From Macrostomum lignano (Eukaryota): a DNA stretch of 60,361 nucleotides. The first letter of the stretch is position 1; each line of letters opens with the position of its first letter. The position numbers and the translations under genes are program-made. This document shows positions 1-44,789 of this stretch, piece after piece. The stretch spans positions 1 through 60,361 of the forward strand of contig NIVC01004108.1 in the NCBI GenBank assembly GCA_002269645.1, in the 5' to 3' direction. The notes under the pieces were generated by a model. It was not told the DNA's origin. It made no database searches and saw only the letters and a list, made by a program, of their open reading frames with translations.

Positions 1-330
1 TGTCCTTTTTCAAAATGATACAATTTATACATATGAGGATGTAAAATTCTTTTCCTTCGTCAACACACAATCTTTCGCTTTTTTCTCCAAGACTTCTAAA
101 AGCAGCAGCAACATCCTCTCCTTTTTTGGATTTTAAAGGAACAGCCCACGCGTATCGGTAAAACCATCTAATATGGTTAAGATATATTATATCCTCTTTC
201 GTTCGGCATCGACATTAAATCAGCATACCAAATTTCATTCTTTTTGAAGTTCATGATTTTTCTATAAAATTTAGGTTTTCGATATTCTTTATGAAGAATC
301 TTTGCCTCATCAGAACTTAACCACCACTTA
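1..330 (-). CDS. Retroviral-like (rve, DDE) integrase of Polinton type, N-terminal part, frameshifted, runs off the window
   Basis: Manual minus-strand translation across 1-nt frameshifts: AKILHKEYRKPKFYRK..EIWYADLMSM..GY..ILTILDGFTRYAWAVPLKSKKGEDVAAAF..LCVDEGKEFY; first two catalytic Asp (WxADL, xDxGKEF) visible. Confidence 0.9.
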
Positions 331-1130
331 AAGTAAAACACTCACACAATTATTTCCATGTTGATTATAATTAATTCCCAAACCAAATTTAACTTTAGAC
401 TGCAAGATCTTTTTAACCATCCACTAGTTAATTTTGACCTACCGATAATCCCTGCAAGTTATCTAATCCTTGAATCATTTTTTTGATCGGCTTCATGTTT
501 TAATCTTAATGCTTCCTCGGCGTGGTTCTTGTCAGCATCTCTATATGCTAAGTCGTGATAGTATGCTAACCAATCAATCCCATTTATTGGAATTGAATCA
601 GATTTTGGGTGTCATCAGGATTTAATCTCAAATCTAAGCGAGTGCCGGGTAGTTTACCCTCAATCTTTCGAAAGAGGCTGGAGCACACCTTAAGCGGCGA
701 TAATTACCGCCCATCTCCGTCTGCTCTCTGAACCTTCTCCTTATATTTAAAATACTTAGGAGCTTGGCTGCGCATTGCCACCGTGTCTTCAAGCTTTTTA
801 CCTTTGGGAAGAGGAGTTACCTCTGTTCCTTCAAAAGATTTCTCAATTGAAGTGGTACTTGAAGCTGTATGACGGGTTTCACGCAATTTGGAGATGTCGC
901 CACAAATAGTGACTAGCAAGGACATTGCCTTCCTCACTCAGGCCACGGGTTAACCTGTGAAGTTCATTGATGGTAGGTGTAGTTCCCTGTATATTTACCA
1001 GTAGTAAAGATTGGTGGTAAGCTTGTTAATCCTTTTTGAACATCTAAAATCCTCCTTCAAATACTATTTGATCGTTCGAAGGAACGCGAACTTCGTTCGG
1101 TTGCTCATTTTTAATAGCCTTAAAATACAT
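328..1130 (-). CDS. PLA2X: parvovirus VP1u-like phospholipase A2 domain protein, split by a group I intron (650-952) and with 1-nt frameshifts
   Basis: Manual reconstruction: MYFKAIK..FEGGF/LDVQKGLTSLPP..G/ELHLPSMNFTG | PGTRLDLRLNPDDT/PKSDSIPINGIDWLAYYHDLAYRDAD..KHEADQKMI..KVKFGLG; matches the parvoviral PLA2 GPG Ca-binding loop and HDxxY catalytic motif. Confidence 0.85.
650..952 (-). ncRNA. Group I self-splicing intron, IC1-like, 303 nt, no internal homing endonuclease
   Basis: P/Q/R/S core: AAATTGCGTGAAA (889-877), AATGCGCAGC (776-767), GTTCAGAGAGCAGA (733-720), AAGGTGTGCTCC (691-680). P3 CATCTCC/GGAGATG; P7 G(A)GAGCA/TGCTCC; P1 exon CAGGT/IGS GCCTG with U.G at the splice site; P5abc with GAAA loop and A-rich bulge; P6a CTCCT/AGGAG; P8 GGCGGT/ATCGCC; P9 GAAA loop. 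Removal restores the reading frame. Confidence 0.9.
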
Positions 1131-1645
1131 GAAAGCACCAATTGTTTTGCAAATTCTTCAATTGTTGGTTGTTTAACTTTTTTATAGTTATTATCTACGC
1201 TAGTTAAGTATCTTTTATTTCTCCAATTTTCAGACTTTTTAATCTGATCATCGTCTTTGTAATTAAATGAAGAAGCGGGAATGAAATGATCAATATCTAA
1301 CTTTCCAGTATAATTTTTTGGAACATAATAATTTCTTGTGAAATTTAACCAATCAAAAAAGAATTCTTTTGTGCAACCAAGATAGGAGATATAATGTTTG
1401 TCATGAAAATTCTCAATGCCAATTATTTTAGCTCTAATTAGACTAATATTTTTGAATTTTCATCAGTGCGATATTTATTTTTGCATATTTATTACATTTA
1501 TCTTTATTGTTTATTCTCCACATAGTACATTTAACTTTCTCACAAGATCGACAAAGATTTTAAATTTTTTTGTGTCATTTCTCCAACAAAAAAATTCTTT
1601 AGTCATCGGTTTCTCAATTTACACGTAGTACAAATTTTGTTTCAT
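1064..1645 (-). CDS. Free-standing HNH (EndoVII-like) endonuclease with N-terminal CxxC..CxxC zinc finger, frameshifted
   Basis: Manual translation across frameshifts: KICTTCK..EFFCWRNDTKKF..CRSCEK...SYLGCTKEFFFDWLNFTRNYYVPKNYTGKLDIDHFIPASSFNYKDDDQIKKSENWRNKRYLTSVDNNYKK; resembles the large-DNA-virus LGC..E..W / HIDHIIP.SSF / N...L...DN..K family. Confidence 0.75.
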
Positions 1646-1669
1646 TTTTATAAAAAATAAATTTAACAA

Positions 1670-2338
1670 TTAATTAAAAACTACTAGTATGTCCAGCAGC
1701 TTTCGCAGCAGCTAAAACAAGTTTTCGCGGTGTTTTAAATCCTTCTCCAACAGCTGGTTTGTTATTTATAGAATTAACAATCCTTTTATACAAGCTGGTA
1801 TTTTTAAAGCTCTCCTAACTCATCATAAAAAATTCTAGCACTTACTTAATTCATCCCTAGTATATAAATCAGGGTTAAACTTTACCCTAGGGTTCATAAC
1901 AATATTATATGCTCCGCCCAATTCTCTATATAGTTCATTTCGATTTTTATCAACTCCACCAATTCGATAATTATTATTACCTAAATCTGTCGCAGCAATA
2001 CTAGCTGGTACTCTTGGATATTGTTCCCATCCCCCCGCTCTGCACGTCTAATCTCTGCAATCTCAATTGTGCTTGATCAACATCATAAGCAGGCGGCTCA
2101 TCCAAAATTTCATCCTCTTTTGGCTCCGTATTTTTAGCAATTTTTTCCAGAAGATCTTTATCTGTTTTTTCTAGTTCACTAATTTTCCCAGTAATAGGAT
2201 TAACAAAAGGAGCAGCAAATCTTTCACCGCTAATTGTATTCCTAACTTTCTTTTTTGTAAATTTCTAACAAAATCAGAATATCTTTGCTTCTCTTTATAA
2301 ATCGCTAACTCTCCATCAACGTCCATAAATTGACTCAT
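1670..2338 (-). CDS. Hypothetical Polinton protein, frameshifted
   Basis: AAAAAATG start at 2338; broken reading frames with Polinton-like segments (MSQFMDVDGELAIYKEKQ.., YTRDELSK.., KLVLAAAKAAGHT). Boundaries approximate. Confidence 0.45.
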
Positions 2339-2372
2339 TTTTTAACATAAAAAACTTTTTTAACTTAAAAAA

Positions 2373-3838
2373 ATGGCTGAAACAAAAACTATGTGGAGTG
2401 ATAAATTTCATTTCAAAAAGCACCGACAGTATATTAATGAGGTCAGAGCAAAGATTTAAATTATACCCTACCAACAAGTGATAATTCAAATAACTTTACT
2501 ACTGGAACGGTAACTTTTGACATCGGCGCAACCAACACTATATTGGATATGAAAAATGCGTTTTTCCGCGTTAGATGGTTGTATACTAGAAATGATGGAA
2601 CTGCTCTTGCAGCCGGAGATATCGCAGATCGATCCGGAATAATAATAGAAAATGATTGGTTTTATAAATGTTTTTCCCAAGCTCAACTAACTGTTAATGG
2701 TGCTGAGGTTGAGACATCATCAAACCCCGCAGAGATTAATGGAGTTTTGAAACATTTAAATTATACTTATTTATCAAAACAAGTTGGTGATAATGTTGGG
2801 TGGATGCCGGATAAAGGTAACGGCAAGCAGTAGTTTTCCCTAATGTACAAAACGCAGCCGGTGCAGATACTGCAGCGCTAATTGTTTACCTTAATACAAA
2901 CATAGTTCCAGTTGTAACCACTATGACTAATACAAAAGATATTAATACTGGTTTTATAGATCGTCAGAATAAATTCCCAGTCGCGGTTTTAACCACAGCA
3001 ACAGCATATGAGCAGGACTTTTCAATCTTTCCACTATTTGGGTTTTTCTCACCAAATCGGGTATGGAAAGGATTAAAATTTGGGATACAGTTGCAAATAT
3101 CTGGTGGATATCAGCCTAGGATACTTTATGGAACCTCAATTTCAACCGATATAGCAGTTCGTATAGATTCAATTCAATTAGTCGTACCAACTATTGAGGT
3201 AACAGCCCCACTTTTAAAACACATCGATAATCAGTTAACGCATGATCAGGAAATATTTTATTTGAATCGTCGACATTTTATGCGAACCATTAATAATAAC
3301 CAGGATTCATTCCAGTGGCAAATACTGACATCAAAACGTCGGGTGAGATATATTTTTGTTTGGTTTAAGATAACAAATAGAAGGAGTAAAAGAGCAAATG
3401 GGGATTTATATTGGCTTCAATCGGTGCATAGCAGCACAAGCAGCTACCGCAACAGACAACGCGTTGCTGCAATTAACGAGTTTAATGTTCAGAATATCCG
3501 CCTGCAGGTTGATGATCAATATTATCCGGTTAAAGACCCCTAATTTAAATATAGCAAATAATAATGTTAATGATTTTATAAAATATTATCAAGATTATGC
3601 CAAAAATGAAGCGTATGCCGTCCCTCAGTACACACCCACAGAGTTTCTAAACATTCATCCAGTGGTTGTTTATGATCTAACGGCACAGAAAGAAAACGTA
3701 GCCAATATTGGACTTAATTATATGTTAGAGATTAATAAAACCGGTAATCAGGCACTTGACGCCCACGTATTGTTTCTAGAGGAATATATGTCAATTGCTA
3801 AAGCTGATGGCACGATTGTTCGGGACGCACCATTGTAA
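2373..3838 (+). CDS. Major capsid protein (double jelly-roll), broken by several 1-nt frameshifts
   Basis: ATG at 2373 plus ORFs 2543-2833, 2923-3543 and 3398-3838 join into ~480 aa; motifs FSQAQLTVNGAEVE, RRVRYIFVWF, NIRLQVDDQYYP, VVVYDLTAQKE are Polinton MCP-like; adjacent to ATPase and penton. Confidence 0.8.
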
Positions 3839-3889
3839 AATGAGTGCAGGTCTCCGACCGTCGCGCCTATTTAAATTATTTCTTTAAAA

Positions 3890-4715
3890 ATGGTAAAGGC
3901 AAAACACAATAAATATTTCCAAATGATCCTTTTCTTTGTTTAGTAATCGGAGGATCAGGTAAAGGAAAAACACACTTTGTTTACGATTTATTAACAACAG
4001 ATGGAATGTTAGACTATAATAATTTAATAATTTATACTAATAAACCTAGAATAAAATATTATGAATTTCTTAAACATGGATTAAAAAACAAATTAAAAAA
4101 AGATGTCTTGTTTAGAATGTTAAGAGCATATGAGCAATATGAGGATGATGACGAACCGCGATTTAATCTAGCAGACATTGAGGATTTATGTAAAACAATG
4201 GCACAACAGCCAGAAAACATCACGATCGCCCCGAAGGGTCGCGACTTCGTCGATCGAGCCCCAACTGTTAGAGTATCAACCCGATTAGCCTATGATCAAA
4301 TTCCAAAACATGATAAAACACTAATTATTTTTGATGATTGTATTAATGACGGTGATCAAGAATTGCAAAAGGAAATTTTTGTTAGTGGTAGAGGAGATGG
4401 AATTGGAGCTTTTTATCTTACTCAATCCTTTAGAGAATTAGAATCGATTATAAAAAGAATGCTAGCTGTTGTGTAATGTTTGATTTAGATAACTATGATC
4501 TACAAAATATTCACGCTAGATTTAATCCCGGATTGGATGCAAAACCATTTAAAAGTATGTGTAAAAAAATTTGGGATGATAGCCAATACAAACATATTTA
4601 TATCAATCCGAGGTTAGAAAGGAAACATAGAATTTTAACAAATTTGATAAAAGAAGACGATGAGGAAGAAGAGGATCGTAGCACGCGACCTCGTACGATT
4701 AATTTCCCACTATAA
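3890..4715 (+). CDS. Genome packaging ATPase (FtsK/A32-like), frameshifted
   Basis: Walker A IGGSGKGKT (~3946-3972), Walker B LIIFDD, FYLTQSF motif; joins ORFs 4006-4476 and 4476-4715. Confidence 0.9.
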
Positions 4716-4717
4716 AA

Positions 4718-5568
4718 ATGACTACAAATTTAGATACTATAAAACAATTGGTAGATCGAACTAATTCAAAATTTAGTACAACATTACAGTTTATAATGAC
4801 AACCAGCGAGCAACGGATTCAATTGCGCGATCCATTACAACTTGATCAAAGCCTAAGTTATCAAATAGGTTTAATTCTATTTTCGGTTTTCAACATGCCT
4901 CAATTAATTAATGCAACAAATAATCAATTTAGATATTCTAAAGATTCCGGAGCCAATTGGACAACATTTAGCGTTAACCCAGGAGCGTATAGCTATACTG
5001 ATTTGAATGCTTATATAGAAGGAGAATTAACAACTAATGGTGATTGGGTAGCAGGAGCAATTGTTATAGGTGTTGATTTACCGTCTGGCAGATTCACACT
5101 ATCACTAGGATCCGGATATCAGGTTGATTTCACAATTGCAAATTCACTCAGAACCATACTTGGATTTAATTCCCGAATAGTTACCACATCAAGCACCGGT
5201 GATACAGTGGGAAATATTGAGGGGGAGTAATACAATTAATATAACAACCGACATATCAAACGGCGTTATATAACAGATAATAATGGAGTTTTGGTTCAAC
5301 GTGGAATTATTTATTCAATCCCATTTCTTGCTGTTCCAATTGGAGAGAAAATGATTGTTGCACCCAAACCCCAATATATTATCCTTTAAATCAATATAGC
5401 GTTCAATCAATTTATATTAGGATTGTAGATGAAAGCGATAGATTAATAAGTTTTGGTGGGCAGTCAATAACAATAATTTTACGTATAAAACAGGTTTATC
5501 GTAACGCGTGCTCACGATCGAACGAAGGTTCGCGGACTTTGTCCGTTTCCTATAGTAAAAATGGGTAA
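4718..5568 (+). CDS. Minor capsid (penton-like, single jelly-roll) protein, frameshifted
   Basis: LRDPLQLDQSLSYQIGL..FSVFNMP..INATNNQFRY N-terminus; continues after frameshifts with VNTINITTDI..GIIYSIP..IYIRIVDESDRLISFGGQSITIILRIK, typical of Polinton penton C-termini. Confidence 0.8.
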
Positions 5569-5767
5569 TCGAACAACATGTTCGCGTGCAAAGCACGATA
5601 ATAATAATTTAATAAAAAAACAATCAGAAAAAGTTAAAAAAGCTGAAGATAATTACGAACTAGAACTAGCAAAATTAAGGCAGTTACAAGCTGATAAAAT
5701 AAGAAAGGAATTGTTAAAACCCACACCTACGAAACTAACTAAAACCAAGAGTTTTTCAGGAACATAA
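5561..5767 (+). CDS. Small basic coiled-coil hypothetical protein
   Basis: 68-aa ORF with AAAAATG start, packed between penton and protease. Confidence 0.4.
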   Translation: MGNRTTCSRAKHDNNNLIKKQSEKVKKAEDNYELELAKLRQLQADKIRKELLKPTPTKLTKTKSFSGT

Positions 5768-5768
5768 A

Positions 5769-6166
5769 ATGACCATGACGTGGGATGATTTTAAACAAAG
5801 ATATGGAACAGACACAACAAGCAATATCGAATTAACAAATTGGGCGAGGCAGTTAAAAATAAAACCATTCAGATGTGTTATGCGGGATGAGATAAAAGAC
5901 TTACCAAGATATGGATCTTTCATTGTTAATATTGAAACAACAAAAGAAAATGGTGTTCATTGGTCAGCAGTTTATTCAAAACCAAAACTTGTTTATTTTT
6001 TTGATTCATACGCGCTTCCTCCGTTACAGGAAATAAAAGACAAATTTAATCATACTAAAAATCGTTTATGTGGAGATCATCACGAACAGTTTCAAACTTT
6101 GATAAAAGTTATTGCGGCAAGCGGCGTTGTATTTTTTATATCGACTTTCGAATGAAGCTCGTGTAA
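5769..6166 (+). CDS. Adenain-like cysteine protease (virion maturation), one frameshift near 6100
   Basis: IVNIET..NGVHWSAV (His), YFFDSYA (Asp), and in the shifted frame QFQT/DKSYCG (Gln, Cys). Confidence 0.88.
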
Positions 6167-6213
6167 ACCCCGAAGTATTTAGATTTTAGACTCTATAAAA
6201 TAGACAGTAAAAA

Positions 6214-8190
6214 ATGTTATTTTCTGGAACACCCTCATGGAACGGAACATCAAGTACTGGTGGTGGTACTTCTGGTGGAATAAGTGTTACATTCGGAGAT
6301 AACCGATATATTAATGAAGATGAAGGTTATAAAAAAAGTGAAGTTGATACTAAACTAAATTTAAAAAGAAATGTTGCAGATTCCTATACCAAAACTCAAA
6401 TAGATAATTCCCTAAATTTAAAACGGAACGTAGCCGATTCATATACAAAAACAGAGGTTGACAATGGGTTAAATTTAAAAAGAGATATAACTGATTCTTA
6501 TTCTCGAACTCAAATAGATGATTCATTAAATTTAAAACGCAATACGGCCGATTCTTATACCAAAACTGAAGTTGATAATTCCCTAAATTTAAAAAGAGAT
6601 ATAACTGATTCCTATACCAAAACTGAAGTTGATAATTCCCTAAATTTAAAAAGAGATATAACTGATTCCTATACCAAAACCGAAGTTGATAATTCCCTAA
6701 ATTTAAAAAGAGATATAACTGATTCTTATAGCAAAACTGAAGTTGATAATTCCTTAAATTTAAAAAGAGATATAACTGATTCCTATACCAAAACGGAGGT
6801 TGATAATTTAGTTGGAGGTGGAGCCTTAAAGCAGGATCGATTCCAAACGGTTGAAACTGGTCACATACCTACCATGGCAGATTGGAGTGGAAATGGTTTT
6901 GCAATAACCGCAAGCACTGCATTTAATACAACTGATTTTGCAAGTTGGAAAGCGTTTGATGGTAATGATTCAACAGATTGGGCAACAAATAATACTCAAA
7001 CCGATTATTGGATTCAGGTTCAATGCCCTTCCGCAATAATGTGTTATAAAATTGATTTACGTGGTAGGCCATCACCTTCAACCGAGCATCCAGCATCATG
7101 GCGATTTGAGGGAAGTAATGACAATACAAGTTGGGACGTATTAATACCTGTGGATAGTTCTGTAGCAATAAATAACTCAACTCAAACAATTAATGTCACA
7201 CAAAATTTTGATAAAACATATTCATATTTCAGATTGTTCTGTCTTACATCAACCTCGGGTTCAACCAACCCGGGTCTGTCAACCTTCCAGATTTATAGAC
7301 AGACGTTTACAATTCTTGATTTAAATTTGGGAGTGGTTAATCAATCAATTGATATGGGAGGTAATACAATTACTAATATCTCTACTATAAACAATAACAG
7401 TTCTGTTGTTACTAAAGGTTATGTTGATACGCGAGTAACACAAACGGCGGATGGCCGAATGTCTTTTAACGATAAAATAAAATTGGATGGAATACCTGCA
7501 ATCGATGCCGCTTTGTACGAGCCTGTAATTTGCAATTGGACTGGATATCAAAACCCAACCACCGCCGGCGATATTTTTCCAACAGGAAGTTTTGTTGGAG
7601 ATGCTTCTTATATAGATTATCAAAATGGTGCTAGAATTACTGATGAAGCATCGGGTCGGTCTGGAGCGTTGCAATTTAATTTCACCCATTTTCGTAATAT
7701 CTCCGCCTCCTTCTATTTCCGAGTTGCTAATGCTACAGGAAGTGGTGCTGATGCGGTTTGGTTTTATGCATATTGTCACGAACGTCCAACAAGTGAATTT
7801 GGATCCGGGTTAACAACCCGCGCCGGCTTGATTGTGTTTGCGAGTGAATGGCATGATAGAGTTGGGGTTGTTTGGAGCAATATAAAATCAGACGGTGCAA
7901 CAGCTCGTAATGATGTTCTTAATGACGCAGATCAAACTATAACCTATGCTAATATTGATAACGGCGATTGGCATCTTTTTGAAATTAATATTTTAAATCA
8001 AAGAGTTTGGTATCAAATAAGCACATACAATGTATCAGCTAATACATATACGCTAATTGGTCAAAACTTTTTTACATATGATAGTGGAACTTGGGGAGAT
8101 TTAGATAAAACGGGAACTCTTATGGGTTTTGGTGCTCGAACTGGAGGAGCAGATGCCGCACATTTTATTCGTGGCAGCCGTTTGTGGTAG
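6214..8190 (+). CDS. Fiber/receptor-binding-like protein: 19-aa repeat shaft, F5/8-C (discoidin)-like domain, neck motif, L-type lectin-like head
   Basis: Intact 658-aa ORF; repeats YTKTEVDNSLNLKRDITDS; ASTAF..WKAFDG..W....YWIQV..P.SWRFEGSND (discoidin-like); IDMGGNTITN..VVTKGYVD (fiber neck-like); GDASY..A.IT..SG.SGA..F..GSGAD..WF (legume lectin-like). Confidence 0.7.
   Translation: MLFSGTPSWNGTSSTGGGTSGGISVTFGDNRYINEDEGYKKSEVDTKLNLKRNVADSYTKTQIDNSLNLKRNVADSYTKTEVDNGLNLKRDITDSYSRTQIDDSLNLKRNTADSYTKTEVDNSLNLKRDITDSYTKTEVDNSLNLKRDITDSYTKTEVDNSLNLKRDITDSYSKTEVDNSLNLKRDITDSYTKTEVDNLVGGGALKQDRFQTVETGHIPTMADWSGNGFAITASTAFNTTDFASWKAFDGNDSTDWATNNTQTDYWIQVQCPSAIMCYKIDLRGRPSPSTEHPASWRFEGSNDNTSWDVLIPVDSSVAINNSTQTINVTQNFDKTYSYFRLFCLTSTSGSTNPGLSTFQIYRQTFTILDLNLGVVNQSIDMGGNTITNISTINNNSSVVTKGYVDTRVTQTADGRMSFNDKIKLDGIPAIDAALYEPVICNWTGYQNPTTAGDIFPTGSFVGDASYIDYQNGARITDEASGRSGALQFNFTHFRNISASFYFRVANATGSGADAVWFYAYCHERPTSEFGSGLTTRAGLIVFASEWHDRVGVVWSNIKSDGATARNDVLNDADQTITYANIDNGDWHLFEINILNQRVWYQISTYNVSANTYTLIGQNFFTYDSGTWGDLDKTGTLMGFGARTGGADAAHFIRGSRLW
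6328..6810 (+). repeat. 57-bp coding tandem repeat (8 full units plus a partial) in the fiber shaft
   Basis: Directly visible in DNA and protein. Confidence 0.95.
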
Positions 8191-8272
8191 CACATCAGCA
8201 GGATATGATTTTGCTGCGACCGCATATTTGGAACGGCCACAAACCGAAATAACTTAAATATTTATATATAAA

Positions 8273-8599
8273 ATGGCTTTTAGTAGAACTCCATCGATGC
8301 GGCAAAATAATGTTATTATTCCTATTCCTAAACAAGAATCAAATATAAAAACATTCAAATCTCATACCAAATTTTTATTTAGTACTGTAAATGTTCAGGA
8401 TAATAAGAAGCTTCAAGAATTAATTAAGTTATTAAAAAATCATATTATACTTCAAGAGTTTTGGAAAATAGGATTTAAATGGGAGAAAAAAGAAAGAATA
8501 ACTCCAATACAATACCTATTGAGCTCGGGACAAATCCCCAAAGAGCGCGGGGAATTCATTTTGGTGCTATTAAAAATAGACGAGAATGTCGGTATCTGA
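8273..8599 (+). CDS. Hypothetical protein
   Basis: 108-aa ORF, TATATAAAATG start. Confidence 0.55.
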   Translation: MAFSRTPSMRQNNVIIPIPKQESNIKTFKSHTKFLFSTVNVQDNKKLQELIKLLKNHIILQEFWKIGFKWEKKERITPIQYLLSSGQIPKERGEFILVLLKIDENVGI

Positions 8600-9242
8600 A
8601 GCAGATAAATGGGAACGCGACCGGTTCAACCAACGTAAAGGCCAGATGTTGAGTAATGTTGATCGAATAAATTATGATTATGATTTATATGCTAAAAAAG
8701 TAAGAAGAGTTTCAAACCATATAAGAAATATGGACTTTTTCAATATTGGATTTGGAAGCTTATCAATGTTATGTGTAATCGTTTTAGGTATTTTACAATC
8801 TATTCCAACTCTTAATTTATCTCAATTATTTTTAGGTATTTCAATTGGCTCAATATCAGGTTTTGAATTGATCAGGAACTTATCAATACTTTTAGCAATT
8901 AAATTATATCTTAAAAAAAGAAAGGAAAAATATAAATCTTTAAGAGATGTTGCAAAACAATATAAAAATCAATTATATTTATATGTGCAAAAAATATTGG
9001 ATGACGGAGAGATAACGATTCATGAATTATCAACCGCGGTTGAATTATATGAAAAATATTTAAAAGATAGAAATAGAATTTTAGATGTTGAAACTTTTAC
9101 CGATATGGAATTAAAAGAGTTGAGACTCGATAAACCCAAAGCTCCACCTATAGAAACATTAGGCATTTACGAACCTGAAACTATTGCTACTGGGGCACAA
9201 AGCCCGCGGTCAGGAAGTGCGGTAGAACTTCAGGTTGTTTAA
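8586..9242 (+). CDS. Putative membrane protein (hydrophobic hairpin followed by helical KILDDGEITIHE segment)
   Basis: 218-aa ORF with hydrophobic IGFGSLSMLCVIVLGIL..LFLGISIGSISGFELI; resembles a conserved Polinton accessory family (from recall). Confidence 0.6.
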   Translation: MSVSEADKWERDRFNQRKGQMLSNVDRINYDYDLYAKKVRRVSNHIRNMDFFNIGFGSLSMLCVIVLGILQSIPTLNLSQLFLGISIGSISGFELIRNLSILLAIKLYLKKRKEKYKSLRDVAKQYKNQLYLYVQKILDDGEITIHELSTAVELYEKYLKDRNRILDVETFTDMELKELRLDKPKAPPIETLGIYEPETIATGAQSPRSGSAVELQVV

Positions 9243-9722
9243 TTTATTTAATGCATATGTTATATATTCTTCCCAAAGTGGTAACTCTCTTCTGATTCTA
9301 GGTTTAAATTTTTTATCAATACATAAAAATTCCAATGACTTTTTCAGTAACATTTCGTTAGGTATGTTACCTATCCTTATAAACTTTGTATTCTCTCGAA
9401 TAAGAAAATTGAAATAATATCCAACTAAAATTAAAATCCTTTCAGAGTCTTTCGAACTTAATCCCTTTCCTTTATTTAAATGGAAAAAGTTATTATATAA
9501 ATAAACATTATTTCCGGGAATTAAAATTGGATCAGAAATGTCTCTTGTAAGATTTCTTAAAATTGTATTTTTAAAATAGTAATATGAGTTTTCAATCTTT
9601 TTTGTTTTTTCAAATTGATATATTTTAGAACATGAATAACACATATGATATATATCTCCGTTTGCTGTTTGCCCTCTGTGCATAGTCACATTACATTTAT
9701 TACAAACATAAATGTCTTTCAT
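9210..9722 (-). CDS. Hypothetical protein with N-terminal CxxC..CxxC zinc ribbon
   Basis: 170-aa ORF: CNKC..CYSC; A-rich ATG context. Confidence 0.55.
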   Translation of the reverse strand: MKDIYVCNKCNVTMHRGQTANGDIYHMCYSCSKIYQFEKTKKIENSYYYFKNTILRNLTRDISDPILIPGNNVYLYNNFFHLNKGKGLSSKDSERILILVGYYFNFLIRENTKFIRIGNIPNEMLLKKSLEFLCIDKKFKPRIRRELPLWEEYITYALNKLNNLKFYRTS

Positions 9723-9749
9723 TTTTTTTGTTATTTTTTTAGATTAAAA

Positions 9750-10121
9750 ATGGAGAGCTGGTTCAAAACCGATTCTAATGTGATTAATTATCTCACACCC
9801 AATATGTTGGAGAATAAAGAATATAATATTATATGTTTGAGACAGGTTAAATTTATTGGGCTTCAATCAATATTTTTACAATTAGATGGGCAAAAAATTT
9901 TATGTCTAAGCGGAGATGATGTTAAAAATTTTCCTGTTTTAGTTATTAATAAACCTAAAGCGTTTGTTATGAAATACTGCAACGAGGGTGGATTGCAATT
10001 TAAACTAAAACAAACAAATAATAAAAAGAGTGATAGGACTGTAAAATTGGCGGCTGTTTGGGAGGATGACCCGAATAAATTTTTTAAGTTTAAATTTTTT
10101 ATAAGAAAATGGATACGATAA
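9750..10121 (+). CDS. Hypothetical protein
   Basis: AAAAATG at 9750 within ORF 9645-10121. Confidence 0.5.
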   Translation: MESWFKTDSNVINYLTPNMLENKEYNIICLRQVKFIGLQSIFLQLDGQKILCLSGDDVKNFPVLVINKPKAFVMKYCNEGGLQFKLKQTNNKKSDRTVKLAAVWEDDPNKFFKFKFFIRKWIR

Positions 10122-10468
10122 AAATCCTTATCACTAAAGAGCGTGAACTTAATGATATTAATAAAAAAATAAATATAATTATATCTCAGAAATATCATGA
10201 GTATGGGGACGATATGTTTCCCATCCGATATGAGATAGATAAAAGAAAACGTTTTTTAAGACAAGATATTGTTTATGCTGAAATAGTAATTGAAATTGAA
10301 ATAGATAGATTGGTTAGAAAAATAAAAAAACTTAGGAAAAAAATAAAGGATTGTTTAAGTTACCCTGCCGACTGTGAGGATAATTGGTGCTCAATAATAT
10401 ATATATATGAAATTGAAGTTAATGATTTGCTTAAACAATTACATGCTTTAGTTTTTTTCAAGTGCTAA
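10109..10468 (+). CDS. Hypothetical coiled-coil protein
   Basis: 119-aa ORF overlapping both neighbours. Confidence 0.45.
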   Translation: MDTIKILITKERELNDINKKINIIISQKYHEYGDDMFPIRYEIDKRKRFLRQDIVYAEIVIEIEIDRLVRKIKKLRKKIKDCLSYPADCEDNWCSIIYIYEIEVNDLLKQLHALVFFKC

Positions 10469-13400
10469 TTCATCAATATCGAACTCAAAACAATTATAGT
10501 CAACGTCAAATAGTAAACTGTTATAATATTCAATTGATGTTCATGCTGTGGTTTGTCATCAAAATAGTTTTTAAAGAATGGTTTCATAACTCCGTTTTTA
10601 TCCGGTTTTTCTCTTTTAAATGTGTTTATCGTAGAGGTATATGTTTTTGATATTGTTGATCCGCTTTGAGGAATTGTTATACCACCTTCAAATGATCGTT
10701 TCCACGGAGCATTATTATTTACTTTTATTGACTGTCCATCATATAAAGTTTTAAACGATGCAAAATTAATCTTATCGTTTGCACATCCTTTAAATGTTTT
10801 TTTCTCTTCCATAATAAAATCGTCTTTCAATAAAAGACAATATTTAATTTTAGGAGCGATAAAATAACCGAATATAATTCCACCCTCTCCATAATCATTT
10901 TTTCCTTGACTTAAGTTATTTCCAACGTGCCCGTTTTTATTTAATGTGTCCCAATGTTTTTTATGTATATATAACGAATCTGTATCGCCGTAATAAATTT
11001 CTGGAGTCTTTGAGCCCTCTATAGAGGTAATAAAATTATTCATGATCCTTCTTGAATGAGCTAAGATAAATATTCCTAATTGTGCTGGACAAAGGCTTGT
11101 TATAGGCTTTCCTCTTCCTCATCTACATATTCTTGCGTGTCTTTATTTTTTTCAACATAATATAAATCGTCACATATTTTCTCATATGATTTGATTGTGT
11201 CATCGTATTCGGTTTTTAATGTTTGCAAATTCCAGAGATGTGTTGTGAAAGTAATGTCTCTTTGAACTGTTTTGCCATATAATGAATTTAATAGTGTTTT
11301 TACCAATTCAGAACCTGCCTCGTTATTTTCTTTTTTAAATACTTTTCTCATTTCAAAAAGATTTGTAATATAATTCTGAAACGGAGAGAAATCGTAATTT
11401 TTTTCATATACAATTCCACTATATATCTTTAATATTTTTCCACCCATTCTTACAATTTCTTGTATATCTACGGAACATAAGGTGTCAATTACTTTTCCGT
11501 TTCTAAACCTATTTAATGTTTTTGTTTCGTTTGCTTTTGTTTCCGGATTATAAAATTTCTCTTTATCTTTCGATGGGAGATGTTGAAGAAAAACGGTGTT
11601 AGGATTCTCATACATAATCTTTAAAACCGCTGTTTTTGGTCGAAAGGTTTGTGAATTAAATTGTGCCAAGAAATCTTTTTCCTCGCTTATATCAAAAACT
11701 CTTGCTGTTTCTGCTCTTGGATATTCACTATCCTTATCAGACATGGCAGATGGGTACAACGAAACTCCATCAAAATTCATTAAACAATCTGATACGGTAC
11801 CCAATTGCTTTTTTAGTTTAATTGCGATTTTCTTTTTTTCTTCCATATCGCTTTTGATATAAGATGATATAACCTCGCATGGGTCGCTTGTTGGTGTTTT
11901 TAAATGGGCTTTTACAACGTCTACAATTGTTTGAAAACAGTCGCTTTCATATTTATTTATTAGTGCAAATACCCTGCCTCCTTTGACTGCGTCCCGCATA
12001 AACCTTCGTATATAAGGATTGGTATGAGAGTGAACTGAAAATTCTTTTCTTAATAGTGTTTGGTATTTTGCTTTTTCAAGTTTGCTTAAGTCAAAATAAT
12101 CCTCTATTTTCAACGGAGATATTATTTCTTCAACTTTTTTAATGTAATTAGTTTTTTCTTCTGTCTTTAGATATTGTTTCATTTTGTCTTCAACTCTAAC
12201 AAAATCTTTAAACCAACATTTTAATGTTAAACTTGAACAGGTAAGAGTATCGAACATTGTCATTCCTCCAATTTCATATGCTATTTCATTATACTTATGA
12301 ATACAGGCGCATAAAGAAATAAGATCAAATTGTAAATATTCATACCATTCGTCCATGCGCTCTAAATAGTCGTGTTCGGTAATGTCGTGAACCATTGAGG
12401 TCTTTCGCAAATCCTCTCTAATTGTCATTGATGAGCAAAACTTTTTTAAACTCATTGATGCATGTTGATATGAACAAAGCATCGTAATGGTTTGTTTCGA
12501 ATCCTTATGATTCTTCTTCTTATCTTTGTTTATAAATGCGCTAACCTCTTTTGACGCGTAATCGTTTACAAAAGTTATTGATAATATTCCTCTTGGGGTT
12601 TTGAGAATTTTAATTGGTTTTATATTACAAAATAGTGGTATGTATGAATCGAAGCGGGATGAGTTATGCGCGATCAAAACAATCTTTTTTGACCTAACTG
12701 TACCAAGGTATTTAAACATTTTTCTAACACAATCAACCTTTGGTTGCGAACCTTCGGCACGGTCAACCTTATCTCCATCTGTTTGAAAATCACAACCGCG
12801 ATCTGATATCAAGATCTTAGTTAGTTTCTTTATTTGCTCTGGGGTTTCATTACACTTATTAGAAAAGTCGTTATAGTTTAAAAGACCAACCGCATACGGA
12901 CATGCTTGTTGATTATAATTTAAATATGTTTCAAAATCAAATATATATACGTTTGATTTATTGGGATTTGTGGGTGTGTTGAACATTTTTAGCTCCTTAA
13001 CATTTTCGAGCGTTGGGTTTTTATATACAACTTTATAATTGTCTTTTATCCGTTCGAGGGCGATTCCTCGTTGTTTATTTGATATAAGACAATAATGACC
13101 AATGTGATAATCGGGTGTGTGAAAGTAATTTATTAATAACCAATCGTGGTGAATCCCTCTTTGAGACTTTGGTTCAATGCCACGATTTTTGGTGTTGTAC
13201 AGCCCTATACTAAGATTAAAATGTTCGTTGAATCTTCCAATTCTTGAATTTGTCATTAAACCTCTTTGAGTTCTTGAGTCGTACAACCAAGCACCATATT
13301 CGTCTTTGCGTGGGGCTTTATCACCATAAATAAACTGAACACACTTATAGAAACAATTTCCATCACTAGGTATGTAACAGTACTCATCTTTATACTCTGC

Positions 13401-14066
13401 AATTTCACACATGACATTTGTTCCCATACCCTGCTTTGACCTTTCGTGTTTAAGTGTAATTTCGTTTGGTGTCATTTTAAGTCTTCCAGAAAACACACTT
13501 AAATTCATGTCGTAATTTTCTACCAAATGCTTAAACCAAGCTTGAAATTGACTTATATTATAAAATGTTGCTAAGTATTGATTAATCTCTTCACGATCAT
13601 CTCCGGTTTTATTATAAAAATATTGTACCCTCGCATTAGTAATTTCAACAGCATATCCGTTTGATAGCTGGGTTTCAATAAAATCTAAGACATTCTGCAT
13701 TGGTTCAAATCGATAAACCCTAATAAACTCATCTAATGGTTTTTCATCCGATTTATTCCGAGGTTTCCGACGTGTGGGTTTCTTTTGGTTTTTTTCTAAT
13801 TCTGCTATTCTTTTTTCATATTCAGCCTTTTCTATTAATCGCTTCATTTCATATTCTGCCCTTATATTATTTGCTAATGCATTTATTTGTTGGTCTTGTA
13901 TTTCTCTTTCTCTCTGCCTTTCTCTCTGTCTTTCTCTTGCTCTTTGGCGGCGTTGTTGTCTTTGGCGCTGTTCAATTTGTTCAATCTGTCTTTGTAATCG
14001 ATTGAACTGTTGGCGCTCATTTGCAAGAAGTTGTCGAATCTGATCTGGGGTCAATCTTTGTTCCAT
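10465..14066 (-). CDS. pPolB: Protein-primed family B DNA polymerase with N-terminal OTU-like/terminal-protein region; one frameshift near 11090
   Basis: ExoI YIFDFET, ExoII AHNSSRFD, ExoIII YLQFDLISL, PolA NFDGVSLYPSAM, PolB KTLLNSLYGK, PolC YYGDTDS; ORFs 11100-14066 and 10465-11043 are bridged by KPCPAQLGIFILAHSRRIM in the second frame. Confidence 0.97.
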
Positions 14067-14150
14067 TTTATAGAATATAATTTATATAATGTTTGAATTA
14101 TTGATTTTTTAATTTTGCGTTTTTGGTGTCCAGACCCTACCCCCAGGAGC

Positions 14151-15146
14151 CTATTCGAGATCTGCTTTTGGTAATAGCAATCCATTGCCCATAACGTTTG
14201 AATTTAAGAAAATTCCTGAACCTGCTTTTGGTCTCATTTCGAGATATAATCCGCTTCCATCATGTTTTTCAATGATGTTAAAATCTTTTCCTAATTTAGT
14301 AAAAATCTTCTGAACTGCTGGTCTAAAATTGGATCCAATATTGTCAAAAAATCCTTTAGCTTTCTCACCCGTTTTTTCTAAAGTTTGGCCAAATTCATGT
14401 AGTTTATCTGCGACAACTCCACTTCCTTGGGTTGTTCCTTGTAAAAGTAAACCATTGCCATGATTTGATCCTTTTAGTATTAACCCTTTTCCAGCTGATA
14501 ACCTAGCTTCTGCATTTCTTTTTTGCTCAGCTGTTGCTGAACTACTATTAATTGTATCGATAAGTTTTTGTTTAAATTGTGCGTCCTGCGTTATTTGCTG
14601 TCTTTGAAATTCTGCATCTCGTTTGGCTTTTTCGTCCGCAGCTTTTTTGTCATTTACTGCTTTTGCAATTCCAGCTGCTCCGCCAGCAACTCCTCCAGCT
14701 GCTCCAATTCCTGCAAAAATTATTGGGAGCAAAGCTGCAAGGGGTAAGATTCCCCCCTGTTTCGCTCTTAACTCTCCTAGCTGTTTTACATTATCATGAA
14801 TTCTTTTTCCGGCTAAACCGACTGCTCCAGCTGCGCCAAGCCCTAAAAGAAGCGGTAGAATGGGTAGTAATCCACCGTCCTTTTTAGTGTGAGTCTCCAT
14901 TAAAAATTTCACATCAGAGTCTGTCAACCTATAATTTCTGCCGCGATTCTTAAAGGATATTGGCCTTCCTTCTTGTGCATATTTTGCTGCGAGTTTAAAT
15001 GTATCGATGTCGTAGTCAAACTTTTTACCTAATCGATCCAATCTTTTTAACATTGTGTGGGTTTGCTTATTATCATCAAGATCTAAAGTATCTACAATTT
15101 CTCCTATAAAATATAACCGGTTTTCATCATCATTAACTGAGCCCAT
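14151..15146 (-). CDS. Putative core/membrane-lytic precursor protein (Gly/Ala-rich hydrophobic segments after GG motifs)
   Basis: 331-aa ORF with DGG-LLPILPLLLGLGAAG, QGG-ILPLAALLPIIFAGIGAAGG and repeated GxGLxL motifs. Confidence 0.55.
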   Translation of the reverse strand: MGSVNDDENRLYFIGEIVDTLDLDDNKQTHTMLKRLDRLGKKFDYDIDTFKLAAKYAQEGRPISFKNRGRNYRLTDSDVKFLMETHTKKDGGLLPILPLLLGLGAAGAVGLAGKRIHDNVKQLGELRAKQGGILPLAALLPIIFAGIGAAGGVAGGAAGIAKAVNDKKAADEKAKRDAEFQRQQITQDAQFKQKLIDTINSSSATAEQKRNAEARLSAGKGLILKGSNHGNGLLLQGTTQGSGVVADKLHEFGQTLEKTGEKAKGFFDNIGSNFRPAVQKIFTKLGKDFNIIEKHDGSGLYLEMRPKAGSGIFLNSNVMGNGLLLPKADLE

Positions 15147-15156
15147 TTTTATATTG

Positions 15157-15567
15157 TTAAAATTTCTTTAATCCTTTTCCACCTTTAATAGTATTTAACA
15201 TTTTATTAAAATCCTGAATATCTTTATTACTTATTGGTGCGCTTTTCGTGGGGGTTTCTGTTGGTTGTGCGGCTTGGGTTGCTTCCTGTGCTAATTTCAA
15301 ATCTTTTATTGCTTTTATCTGTGAGAGGGTATCGTTAAATTCTCTCAATTTCTTTAGTTCTTCTGCCGCTCTAGCTGCTTCAATTCCTCCTTTTACAGCA
15401 TTTGTTATAGAACCTGCTGCGGAGCCAGCTTGCCCTATAAGCCCCATATTGTCTTTAACAAAATTTGCTGCTGTTCCAACCACATCAAAAAGCCCCTCAC
15501 CTCGGTATTCAACTGGGTCTCCTACCTGCAATTCATTCAGATTTTGCATATGTGTAACGTGTGTCAT
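15157..15567 (-). CDS. Putative core protein
   Basis: 136-aa ORF, GEGLFD..GSAAGSITNAVKGG, C-terminal IKGGKGLKKF; co-directional with 14151-15146. Confidence 0.5.
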   Translation of the reverse strand: MTHVTHMQNLNELQVGDPVEYRGEGLFDVVGTAANFVKDNMGLIGQAGSAAGSITNAVKGGIEAARAAEELKKLREFNDTLSQIKAIKDLKLAQEATQAAQPTETPTKSAPISNKDIQDFNKMLNTIKGGKGLKKF

Positions 15568-15821
15568 TTTTTGTTCTATTTTTAGTAACAGAAAAAGATT
15601 GTCTGCATTCCATTTAGACCAGATTTTAGACCAAATTTTTGAAAACGAAAACCAAAACGATAGTCTAGTTTTGTTTGGTCTAAAATCTGGTCTAAATGGA
15701 ATGTTGGGTGGGTAGGTGAACTGACTATAAATAGCTTCTATTCTTTCCGACCCTTAGCGCCTGCGGCGCGTGCGACGGGTTCTAGAAAGTTTGTGTGTGT
15801 TGGAGAGAGTTGGAAGCGTTG

Positions 15822-16069
15822 ACGATACAAAATACCCAGCAAACCAAAGCGAACGACGAGAGCGTGTTCTCACCATTCAAAAAGAATTAATCGTTGTAAG
15901 TGTGAAATGGCCTGTTTGACCGAAATGAAGCGAGGATGAGCGAAGCGAGTTGAGCGAAGTGAAGACGAGCGAAAATGAAGGGAAACAGGCCATTTCACAC
16001 TGATAAAGGGTTAAATTGTTTGCAATGGTGAGAATGGTTTGCTGGGTATTTTGTATCGTATATACTACT
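15822..16069. repeat. Polinton right terminus with nested internal inverted repeats
   Basis: 25-bp perfect IR 15822-15846/16035-16059; 11-bp IR TTCTCACCATT/AATGGTGAGAA; 19-bp IR 15899-15917/15983-16001; terminal ACTACT. Confidence 0.85.
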
Positions 16070-18296
16070 ATACTGCCAAACCTAAAACTGAAAGATTTTA
16101 TTACTGAATATTTATACAGATATTATTTTAAATATTTATAGGATTTAACATGGGAGATTATAAAGTGGCAAAAAAATATATACTCAATAATAATACTAAT
16201 AGCAAACTATTATTAATAAACATCTACTCCTAGACCTAGCTAGACAAGCTAATAAAGATAACTTTTTATGCCTAATACTTATCTAGTACTTATCTAGTTA
16301 TACAACTTATTTTAAGAACTTTTAAAGCCAATGTTTGACAATATAATAAACAAAAAATAATTTTGCACTAGTTTTATGATTTTTGACATGAAAATCTCTA
16401 TTAATATATTAATTAGAAAGTAATCTAATTATAATCTAATAATTTATATTATCTAATGATAAATAAGCTCTAATATTCAAATAATCAAATAAATTATTAT
16501 AACTTTATAAATATACAACTACTAGCCAACCTAGCTTATCTAACCAATATAAATTTAAAAACCAAGAATAAGTTGTGAAACAGATGACCAAAAAAGTAAA
16601 AAGACAAGAAAGAAAAGAAATGCAAAGGAAAAAGAAAAATTAGCAATAGGAAATCAAAAAAAGCAAAATATAACAAGAACTTAAAAAAGCAAAAAGATAA
16701 AAAATAAAGGAATCTGTAAAAGAAAAGGATCAGACTAAGTCACATTTTCAATAAAAATAACAAAGTCGCATGCCAGTTTAATTTACAGATTGCGCACACA
16801 ACATGTACTTCTTTGCAGTGGTCCATTTATATTTGATGAATCTGAATGCAATGCATTATTATTATTTTTTTAAAAGCAAAAAATTAGGTAAACGGTGGAA
16901 ATAGATTGAAGAATACAGCACAGTGGGACCACTATAGCATATCACACTGTCTGTAACAACAATGGCAACAAAAGGCTTTTCTGGTTTCATTTTCACTGAA
17001 AAATGAAGTAAAATCTTTTATTCTAATATTCTTATAGGCCCAAGTAGAAATATCTACAGTCTCTACAGTTTCTTTTATAAATGAGTATGAAAGAATTCAT
17101 TCCAAAAATCAAGATAAATTTATGAGATAATTGTGCTTTCACTCTTAGTCTTAGGCCTAGCCTAGTCATACTACGAGCGCTCGTATTTCAAGCATCGTGG
17201 GGCGGACGGAAGTCCAACACAGGGCGTTTTCGTGGATTTACCCCAATTTAAATTTAAGTCGAAAAGACAGAGAAAAACAACACGAACAAACTCTTAGTCA
17301 GTTTTACAGCATAACGAATCAATACACGTTGTATATTTTTACTATCTAAACTACGTGGGTTAGTGATAATAAAAACCTAATTTTTGTTTATTATAGATCC
17401 TACGATAATTAGCATAACGCACTATTTAAAATTTTCATGAATTTGTCAAAGTATCCGTTCATTCGATATATTAAAGGCATTGAATAGATTGACTAGTTCC
17501 ATCAATTATGCAAATGTGAACTGTTAGATAGTACAACTATGGTGCGTTTTCTGCTTCTATTTTGTACTTTTACGGCGCAAATATTTGTTTCGGCTTCTCG
17601 GTAAGCATAAGCATACCTAATCCATGTTTTTAACTGTATCAAATCTCAGCCAGAGATAAATGTAAATTTTTATCAAAATACGCAGATTCACTTCAATGCA
17701 ACTCGTTCGAGCTCAATATGTACCATTGTAATGTAAATTACGTTTTAAACCTATAGGCTAAAAGTTTAACTGTATAAATGTCTAATTTTTTACAGTCGCA
17801 TATCATGCATGAAAAAGCACTTTAAGTACAGCTTGTAAATTTTATCATCATAACACCAGGCTTTCAAAACAATTTACCTAATTATTACATTTAATTAAGC
17901 TGCACGTTAATGAACTATGTCCATCTGAATTATAAATTATAAATTTAATAATTCTTTTGAGCTTTGGAATTGTTTGCGTAGCTTTTGGAAAAAAATAAAT
18001 AACTGATCATATATGTACATTTCTAAGAACTTTAAAAGCGGTTGAAAACACTAACTTTATAGCATGTATTTTTACAAACTGCTATGATGAGTGTTTCCAA
18101 CCGCTTTTAAAGTTTAAAGTTCGACTATAGTTTAAAGTTTAAAGTTTAAAGTTTAAGTTTAAAGCTCGACTATAGTCGAGCTTCTTTTCTTAGTCAGTAA
18201 TAATTGCAAACTATTTCTAATAATAAGTACTGGTTTATTGGTCTTACACCAGCGTACTTTCGATCAACCGTGCATTCTCTTCCAAAAATATTTCAG

Positions 18297-38350: not shown

Positions 38351-39393
38351 CTACAGAAGCAGCATCTCGATCTCCATCAGCGAGTAGTAGAATCCGAAGT
38401 TATATTGCCAAATGACTCCCTGTGCAAAAGCACCTCCAATGGCAGCAGATGCGTCTTTGTACTCTCCGTTCGGCAGGGTGGCGAAACAGCTCCTAAACCA
38501 CCAGGCACCTTTATAAATTGTTGCGCAGTTGCTAGCGTAGGTGTCGTGGTCGGCGTCCTTCGTGCTGAACTGCATGCCGTTGCTCCTGGGAGCGAGGCTG
38601 TCGCCGATGCCGCCGCTGCCGGAGAAGCCGGACACGCTCAGCCGGTAGTTGTCCGACTCGGGACCAACGGAGAAGCTGGAGTACTCAGCCCAGTGCTCAG
38701 AGTCGTTCCACGCCTTCATCAGAATCCTCAGCTTCCGAGGACCAGAAGCAGTGAGAGCGTGGAGAGAGTTCAGGCCTGGGAAGATGCGGACGTCATGGCG
38801 GTGTTTGTCATTGAAGTCCGAGTTGGAAAGGAAGCGAATGGAGCAGATCTGGGATGCACTCACCGATCCAGTAGTTTCCGTCGGGTCCCTCGCCGAACTC
38901 GCTCTGGTACTGAGTCCAGTTGCGGTAAAAGTCCACTGAGCCGGACACCCTGTGCTGCACGGTGGTCCAGCAGTCACTGCCGGCTGTCTGCAAGGTGACA
39001 CAACAGGTGTGTCAGCTTTTCTACTCTGTGTGAAAGCGTGGCTGTGATGCTGACACATCTAACGGAGTGACTCACCCACACTCGCTGAGCTCCCTTGTTC
39101 GCATTGCGGCACTTCCTGCAGTGGCTCAGGCCCAGGCGGCACCTGAAGTGAGCCCACAGGCCGGAGCTGGCGTTGAATGCCACCAGCTGCACAGCGGAAT
39201 CGCCGCTCGCTGAAAGTGCGCAGTCGAACCCATTCCGAGCCGAGCGCGACCTCACGGCCTCGTAGTCAAAGAGGCTCTCGCGACTGGAATGCCACGTCTG
39301 CACAGAGGAGGCGGCTTCGGTCACGTGACGCGGGACTGCAGCGAGCAGCAGCAGCAGCAGCAGAGCGACTTGACGAGCGGGTTGGAGCTGCAT
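38351..39393 (-). CDS. Secreted FReD protein, paralogue 2 (3 exons, apparently intact)
   Basis: Same exon structure and motifs as paralogue 1; ORFs 38974-39393, 38808-38993 and 38351-39058. Confidence 0.9.
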
Positions 39394-43800: not shown

Positions 43801-44789
43801 CCGGTCTTCATGGCACGGCGATGAAGGCTTTTGGCCTTCCGCCTGAGTTTCCCCAGCTCCGGGTTCCACCACGGCGCCGAGGTCTTGCCTTTGTAGGCGC
43901 GAGCAGGACAAGCCGCTTCGTAGGCTTCAATAATGCAACCTGTCAGCGTCTCAGCCATATGATCCACATCCTCGCAGGTCTCAATCGGACGTAAGTCCGT
44001 GAGTTCCTGCAGGTGCAGATCAAGGGCAGCCTTGTAGGCCGCCCAATCAGTGTTGCGGATATTGCGTCTCCAAGTGATCGGAGACTGGGTTTTAGTGTCC
44101 GCGATGTTAAAGGCGATAAAGCAGTGGTCAGACAGGGAGGGCTCCTCAGACCAGACTCTCCACTCCTCAACTCTGTCAAAGAGTCTTGGGGTAACGAGTG
44201 TGGCGTCGAGGACCTCGGTCCATCTGCCATTATTAAAGGTAGGAGTGCTGCCGCGGTTGCAGAGCATGAGGTTTGTGTTAGAGATGAGGGCCAGAAGCTC
44301 CTCTCCTCTAGTGTTGGTATCTTTGCTGCCCCAGTGCTTGTGGTGCGCGTTGAGGTCGCCCCCTAAGCACAGCTCAGCGTTCTGGGACTCGCAGTACTGC
44401 GCGAGGCGCAGTAAACTCTCAGGAGCAGGGTCTCTGTCGCCTGGGATATAAACCGAGGCAACAAGACACGTACGCGGAGAGAAATGATTAGATTGGATGA
44501 CGCAAAGGTCTCCATCAGAGAGATCAGTCCTCAGCCAAGCCTGGAGATGGCTAGCAGCGAGGATAGCCGCTCTAGGGCGGCTGTTCCCCGGGCCACACAC
44601 ATAAAAATCAGAGTAGCCAGAGGGAATGTTGGGCAACTTACCGTTGCGCATCCAGGGTTCCTGGATCAGGATGAGGCCTGGCCTGTACAGCTCAGCAATC
44701 TTCATCAGATTTACTGACGCAGATACGCAATGCTGTAAATTAATTTGCAGACAGAATGTCGCTCCTTTGGCAGCGTGGAGCTTAGTCAT
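40840..44789 (-). CDS. LINE ORF2: APE endonuclease, reverse transcriptase, RNase H, CCHC; 1-nt frameshift near 43555
   Basis: QINLQH, LIQEPW, GGDLNAHH, SDHCFI (APE); FRPISL, FLDIVGAFDN, GPQGGVLTP.LWN, YADD (RT); YTDGSK, SDSQAAL, WVPGHVGIRGNELAD (RNase H); CSFC..ETAEHF..C. Confidence 0.95.

Follow-up and report, generated by a model that had tools for sequence, protein, structure and literature searches.

In a review, group I introns are placed in bacteria and phages, in viruses and organelles, and in nuclear rDNA from fungi, plants and algae (PMC3984707). Introns matching the Rfam model RF00028 have also been described in polinton-like viruses (PLVs), restricted to those of a small number of protists (Rhodomonas, Paulinella and Desmodesmus), as ribozymes of 300 to 380 nt in a protein gene of an integrated element; that gene is a short one upstream of the capsid gene, and the passages concerned mention neither a link to a nuclease nor a purge of sites (PMC12220804). 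Tables S11 and S12 of the same paper list ncRNA matches and could bear on the claim for an animal made below. The account of Bodo saltans virus describes, in its passages on introns, nuclease-bearing parent introns and ORF-less offspring introns in conserved viral genes, and proposes target masking as a weapon against competitors; these introns of cytoplasmic protist viruses use HNH or GIY-YIG homing enzymes (PMC5871332). In collaborative homing, as outlined in parts of two phage papers, an ORF-less intron is associated with a free-standing endonuclease that targets the insertion site; free-standing and composite stages (nuclease inside the intron) occur, and the enzymes recognize long sites (PMC3984707, PMC11296320). 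An HNH domain that is possibly intron-derived is mentioned in a further report (PMC10748475).

The intron analyzed here is, like those of the protist PLVs, a ribozyme in a protein gene of an integrated element, but its host is an animal, the flatworm Macrostomum lignano, and the interrupted gene encodes a PLA2X-integrase. Unlike the giant-virus introns, the intron families described here are associated with a nuclease of a type II restriction fold with a presumed 5-bp target, for which specificity would come from purging the rest of the element genome. Both stages of phage collaborative homing are present in this genome, where they would serve a virus-like element of a eukaryote, here an animal. 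Protist polinton-like viruses are already known to carry group I introns. In the literature searched, which excluded most subscription journals, we found no report of group I introns from the nuclear genome or the Polintons of an animal, and none of a restriction enzyme plus site purge as a driver of homing.

The window is the whole stretch of DNA that was analyzed, 60,361 nt of contig NIVC01004108.1. Its main features are as follows.

650..952, minus strand: group I intron, IC1-like and ORF-less (family A), 303 nt, last base A; identified by RF00028, covariation and intron-less alleles
953..1108, minus strand: exon 1 of the PLA2X-integrase gene; start approximate, frame broken by a small indel; the homologue L060 matches PF08398
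1..649, minus strand: exon 2 of the same gene, remainder of the phospholipase plus a retroviral-type integrase; frameshifted and cut by the contig start
1064..1630, minus strand: free-standing HNH-like nuclease gene; interrupted upstream of 1459, with an approximate outer limit
1..16100: Polinton/Maverick body without GGNCC; right end approximate
about 2376-3838: capsid-like gene in pieces; Atlas look-alikes only, low recognition
3913-4476: packaging ATPase, A32-like; Pox_A32 above cut-off in a sister copy
4703-5230: penton-like gene
5739-6155: protease-like gene
6214-8190: fibre-like gene
10465-14066: protein-primed PolB (PF03175, E 3e-16)
26335..27942, plus strand: host Delta-like EGF gene, 98% identical to a Macrostomum lignano protein; same contig

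The penton, protease and fibre labels are our assumption from motifs and gene position, and the capsid gene is probable. The integrase model PF00665 scored above its cut-off in L002 and L126 and just below it in L060, to which the integrase piece of the window is 91% identical. No relative of PLA2X with a solved structure was found by sequence. In the window copy the frame is open for 14 codons before the intron and 21 after it, with small indels in both exons. The HNH-like protein had no Pfam or PHROG match, so that its label is putative; the Atlas placed it in unnamed clusters only, and its structure model was uninformative (pLDDT 41). With an ORF that lies next to an intron in a giant-virus capsid gene it shares 34% identity over 74 aa.

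The original prediction was of a GC-rich insert of 303 nt at 952-650 on the minus strand, splitting the phospholipase motif NFTG|PGTRL and removable in frame. The insert is present as claimed, with a GC content of 0.46 against 0.35 and 0.32 in its flanks. In a 3-kb scan, RF00028 matched 962-659 on the minus strand over the entire model with 62.2 bits (E 1.1e-14), the gathering cut-off being 50 bits; the covariance search proposed with the prediction thus bore it out. A scan of the whole window against Rfam with fast filters did not pick up the intron, and larger Rfam inputs dropped known introns. Thus, the Rfam counts given here are lower bounds, and blanks are uninformative.

A search for intron-less alleles and further copies, also proposed at the outset, yielded both. 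The genome holds at least 111 copies of the intron, on many contigs, and 31 uninterrupted PLA2X sites (control, 0) on 29 contigs; by matched sequence, 19 of these sites belong to family B, 1 to family A and 11 to others. Two of the six intron-less sites that were excised are direct counterparts of families A and B, with a single open frame in which the phospholipase domain is joined to an rve integrase. In the intron-less alleles L059 and L060, G-P-G-T runs on uninterrupted with zero added residues. Because these alleles add nothing at Gly|Pro, the intron boundaries 952/650 are exact. A 3' splice site at G659 would be in frame, and the Rfam match stops there. However, it would add three residues that are missing from the intron-less alleles, and P9.0 indicates 650; G659 was therefore rejected, and may be used as a cryptic 3' site. 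That the feature at 952-650 is a real group I intron is practically certain.

The intron also very probably lies in an integrated animal Polinton. Family-B elements have a terminal inverted repeat of ~590 bp and many distinct flanks, and the 6-bp target-site duplication is perfect in two of the three such elements with both ends recovered. These elements are chromosomal insertions. This terminal evidence comes from the family-B sisters, since the element in the window is truncated where the contig begins; the far end of element C219 was not found, and the ends of C5112 were mismatched. The nearest ribozymes lie in giant viruses, close relatives of the gene occur in metagenomes, and the element is AT-rich compared with its host, all of which would fit a contaminant or an assembly chimera in which an element of a food alga, a symbiont or a free virus was joined to worm DNA. 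Such an origin is nevertheless highly improbable, given the copies spread over many contigs, the flanks and duplications, and the fact that all 18 runs containing the stretch, from 6 studies, carry one organism label. Together with the RF00028 match and the host gene on the same contig, these data uphold the central claim of the original prediction, a group I intron in a Polinton protein gene of an animal nuclear genome. What that prediction missed was the terminal A, the number of copies, a second intron type at the same site, the nuclease associated with the intron and the purge of GGNCC, all described below. We also observed a family-B Polinton nested in a gene of a different Polinton family, one without the GGNCC purge (L002:2700-3384, L125:1-3700 and L068).

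The elements of the ribozyme, all on the minus strand, are as follows.

939..957: P1, in which the end of the exon (957-953) pairs with the guide (943-939) and the 5' splice site has a U.G; read from the sequence
896-890/718-712: P3, enclosing the P4-P6 domain (712..896)
885-880/774-769: P4
875-778: P5abc, with a GAAA loop at about 842 and an A-rich bulge at about 800
CCUAAG (760)/UAAGG (743): P6/P6a with tetraloop-receptor-like motif, here a variant
728-722/685-680 (region 680..728): P7, the guanosine-binding helix, with a double compensatory change in family A
711-696: P8
679-678/652-651: P9.0, in region 650..679 with the P9 GAAA loop and the last base, A, at 650

The helices from P3 to P9 had been named from the sequence, and in the window copy the P3, P4, P5, P5a/b/c, P6, P6a, P7, P8, P9.0 and P9 stems all pair fully, with P3 at the predicted position. 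Reading the sequence likewise confirmed P1 with its U.G exactly at the 5' splice site; intron-less alleles have a C at that U.G position. Covariation was scored on 11 introns (4 of family A, 3 of family B and 4 from giant viruses): 37 of 70 pairs were altered on both sides, and 90.7% of cells pair. None of 500 shuffles matched the 37 pairs, and slid partners gave 10 to 13, controls that overstate the significance somewhat because the window copy served to define the helices and the rows are related. Plain minimum free energy folding was weakly better than shuffles (z -1.6). The compensatory double change predicted in P7 holds, both pairs being swapped on both sides in 4 of the 11 rows; all four are of family A, and the swap is thus a single event. 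The J8/7 bases beside the altered pairs (window 670-690) are also off consensus in family A. These changes may compensate in a base triple of the G-binding site, and they may relate to the A at the last base.

Introns of subgroup IC1 are recognized by P5abc with an A-rich bulge, a GAAA loop and its receptor. With the Tetrahymena type of this subgroup, the present intron shares P2, P2.1, P5abc with the A-rich bulge, the GAAA loop and the P6a/b receptor, the last being canonical in family B and variant in the window copy. In contrast to that type, it has no P9.1/P9.2 extension, its P7 is altered, and most family-A copies end in A. In layout the intron is IC1-like. Palindromic inserts of ~30 nt vary in the P5, P5c and P6b loops (introns of L132, L002, L018 and L023) and near the PLA2X start (window 1075-1105); they are possibly a mobile mini-hairpin element.

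A terminal G (omega-G) is the canonical end of a group I intron. The last base of the window intron is A, not G, and among 100 listed of the 111 copies, tallied by hand, A stands last in 59 of 77 family-A introns and G in 18, compared with G in 23 of 23 of family B. Of the closely related aligned copies, 25 of 30 end in A. An error in one copy is ruled out by this spread over the subfamily. Omega-G is thus lacking in the window copy and most of family A and present in other family members, and self-splicing is accordingly less certain for the window subfamily. A natural group I intron ending in A reportedly occurs in Coxiella. We slightly favor the view that terminal-A copies splice precisely; such copies would be cut at 650, steered by P9.0 and P10, perhaps slowly, a weaker part of the model.

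The contigs of four runs guessed to be RNA showed no joint skipping 650-952, and contigs can show presence only. Unspliced junctions were bridged by contigs at the 5' side in runs X2 and X4 and at the 3' side in X1 and X2; the RNA nature of X1, X2 and X4 is a guess, and DNA is possibly included. None of the 18 runs containing the stretch is on record as RNA. These unspliced junctions would also fit an intron that is genuine yet dead in this animal, having come down from an ancestor associated with protists or giant viruses, with a terminal-A family that has ceased to splice. The phospholipase would then be dispensable, and the elements would transpose with an integrase that is translated from an internal start or provided in trans. 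The A at the end of most family-A copies and the frameshifted window copy agree with this, as does an integrase ORF with an internal Met that could start it without splicing. We nonetheless regard a dead intron as quite unlikely. The core helices are intact in 30 aligned copies, and all 23 listed family-B copies retain the terminal G. Exon 2 is open for 382 codons in 14 of 24 parsed copies, 10 of which end in A (parsed copies being 24 of the 30 family-A loci, with 6 lacking anchors left out). Diverged terminal-A lineages, moreover, change phospholipase codons mostly synonymously on both sides of the intron: 6 of 26 synonymous against 2 of 79 non-synonymous sites in exon 1, and 10 of 36 against 3 of 144 in exon 2. 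More than 100 copies in a laboratory-model flatworm make group I splicing from animal nuclear mRNA testable, along with the tolerance of a terminal A.

More than one kind of intron occupies this site. Our genome search with RF00028 scored 28 candidates, all above the cut-off, all of family B and all at the same PLA2X position. The family-B intron is ~880 nt long and contains a 228-codon frame that begins after P2 and enters the ribozyme core. A further type with a different core is found at the identical PLA2X site, in 24 copies at 93% identity or more, 12 of them identical. Its representative (L134:1409-1734) scored 34 bits with RF00028, below the cut-off (E 4e-7), with an ambiguous 3' junction; we take its core to be IE-like. 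L052 and L054 resemble recombinants, with P2 of the different-core intron on a window-type core.

Outside this genome, the closest ribozymes are introns of giant viruses in IMG/VR, for example at a capsid-gene start, with 88-90% identity over ~66 nt. The giant-virus loci L127 and L128 carry several group I introns in capsid and neighboring genes, including one right after the first capsid codons that is absent from the Rfam listing. The same PLA2X intron was found neither in IMG/VR, by pattern or protein, nor in GTDB genomes, and one metagenome scan for it returned only a restriction-modification (R-M) locus. The system also shows in database proteins from outside this genome. Seven homologues of the nuclease likewise read through at their end into the core of the intron; among the integrase homologues, two begin with the translated 3' end of the intron and four at the Pro of exon 2. 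Five nuclease and integrase pairs in the databases have source contigs of equal size, which suggests that they are linked. As part of the explanation that we prefer, the insert is probably a mobile group I intron of giant-virus ancestry. This is sequence evidence for ribozymes and nucleases common to animal Polintons and giant viruses.

The ORF of the family-B intron scored 25.2 bits with PF09553 (Eco47II), for which the cut-off is 25.9 (E 1.4e-5). Its structure model has EcoO109I (PDB 1wtd) as best fold (Foldseek E 5e-5; Z 9.8, rmsd 3.7, 163 aligned), and it appears to share with these enzymes the fold and a PD-(D/E)xK-type motif. Eco47II homologues cut GGNCC, according to passages of PMC10305163, and by analogy the nuclease would do the same. 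The genome gave 111 matches to it, fragments included. The 7-bp site of EcoO109I is RGGNCCY; this longer site mismatched at the two intron-less junctions checked and was rejected as the target.

The nuclease has a second clade (~65% identity), which in part of family A stands as a gene of its own immediately upstream of PLA2X. Twelve such copies were excised; 11 reach PLA2X, and all 11 then have an intron. Compared by eye, the 29 contigs with an uninterrupted site included none among the nuclease matches. The slot upstream of PLA2X is a swappable nuclease cassette, being filled by the HNH-like gene in the window and in the intron-less L060 and by an Eco47II-like gene in L132-L134. In 53 of 55 homologous viral or metagenomic nuclease loci there is a C5 methyltransferase within 2.5 kb. 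Unlike these, the family A and B Polinton stretches that we examined contain no methyltransferase, and since the cognate methylase is absent there, the nuclease is not classed as part of an R-M system. It also differs from the Eco47II and EcoO109I enzymes in its association with an intron and in its place in the tree: the Polinton branch is apart from the methylase-linked viral enzymes (SH-aLRT 99) in a quick, unrooted tree, built with 22 of the 55 viral loci, from which no direction of transfer can be read.

The intron is inserted within GGN|CC, between the invariant Gly-Pro codons of the phospholipase loop. Gly-Pro is always encoded by GGN-CCN, and every Gly-Pro therefore contains GGNCC. In window 1-16500 we found no GGNCC, against 14.7 expected, which makes it the most depleted of 16 such palindromes; 200 dinucleotide shuffles of the window element had a mean of 18.1 and a minimum of 8. 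The body of the intron-less family-A element has 0 (8.8 expected), that of family B has 0 (10.1 expected), and an intron-less family-B stretch has 2 (9.6 expected), 1 upstream of the gene and 1 at the insertion site. Other Polinton stretches are unpurged, with 19 against 19.3 and 13 against 22.3 expected, and the host DNA of the window is mildly low (117 against 154). The window and L067 are 92-95% identical, so that the evidence for the purge comes here from about two independent families. L068, with 13 sites, was considered as a counterexample and set aside, as it belongs to another Polinton that holds an inserted family-B element.

The proteins give the same picture. Families A and B contain no Gly-Pro in 11,128 aa (18.7 expected), compared with 18 in 8,113 aa of other elements (19.5 expected). 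Among 120 listed PLA2X-integrase homologues, the 68 closest, a boundary that is arbitrary, have only 7 of the 53 Gly-Pro expected outside the loop, and 88 Pro-Gly; the remaining 52 have 28 against 37. In the stretches examined, the sole genic GGNCC left in both families is that of the phospholipase loop which the intron splits. The purge explains the insertion site. The loop Pro is replaced in the database relatives P0270, P0275, P0281, P0288, P0292 and P0293, an alternative escape from GGNCC, and the site is therefore not strictly unrecodable.

We consider GGNCC masking with nuclease-driven spread of the intron the probable explanation on present sequence data. The intron would take the last GGNCC out of the element DNA, and splicing would restore Gly-Pro in the mRNA. 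An intron-bearing element would then be immune, whereas an intron-less one would be cut once, exactly at the insertion point, and repair after cutting would copy the intron into it. The 5-bp restriction enzyme would serve as a homing endonuclease or as a weapon against co-infecting elements. The window copy would be an ORF-less passenger that keeps immunity and is mobilized in trans. If so, homing specificity would have been reached in a new way, by combining a restriction enzyme of short site with a genome-wide purge, the intron being a substitute for the methylase. The fuller proposal, that active introns in the animal nucleus splice, the terminal-A form too, and home through a methylase-free 5-bp enzyme with a clade-wide purge, the intron replacing DNA methylation, is slightly more doubtful than even.

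Several points stand against masking with nuclease-driven spread. With no methylase to protect it, host chromatin would be expected to be shredded by an enzyme that cuts GGNCC; host DNA might survive through silencing while the element is integrated, or if cutting took place only in a lytic or cytoplasmic phase. Another point is that the window copy has the HNH-like gene upstream instead of the Eco47II-like nuclease. The same holds for most window-type copies (15 of 15 parsed), as would be expected if purge and intron were purely a shield against restriction, selected by the R-M enzymes of a helper or competing giant virus or of an earlier host. The nuclease would then be a late passenger or weapon, and the intron would have spread by inheritance and ordinary recombination. 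Purging is found across a wide clade and in intron-less, nuclease-less elements, so that another organism's enzyme may be the driver; the free-standing homologues are typical giant-virus R-M enzymes, and in passages of PMC12220804 the methylases of PLVs are proposed as protection against giant-virus restriction enzymes. However, such a shield accounts poorly for a nuclease that is encoded within the intron, both in family B and in relatives from the databases that read into the intron core, that was never seen beside an uninterrupted site, and that accompanies an intron more uniform than its exons. We therefore hold it to be unlikely, and prefer masking with nuclease-driven spread.

The uniformity is marked. 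Family-A introns are near-identical while their exons have diverged, for example 1 of 303 against 21 of 285 differences, and the nearest exon differences are usually more than 20 nt from the junctions. Across the compared copies most exon differences are synonymous. These patterns could also come from structural constraint on the intron and from selection that acted before the intron arrived, in place of homing and of selection on spliced copies.

Elsewhere in the window we observed a non-LTR retrotransposon at 40840-45962, with endonuclease, reverse transcriptase and RNase H; a near-duplicate pair of fibrinogen-domain genes at 38351-39058 and 50539-51246; and tandem Delta-like EGF genes at 26335-29192, along with long simple-repeat tracts.
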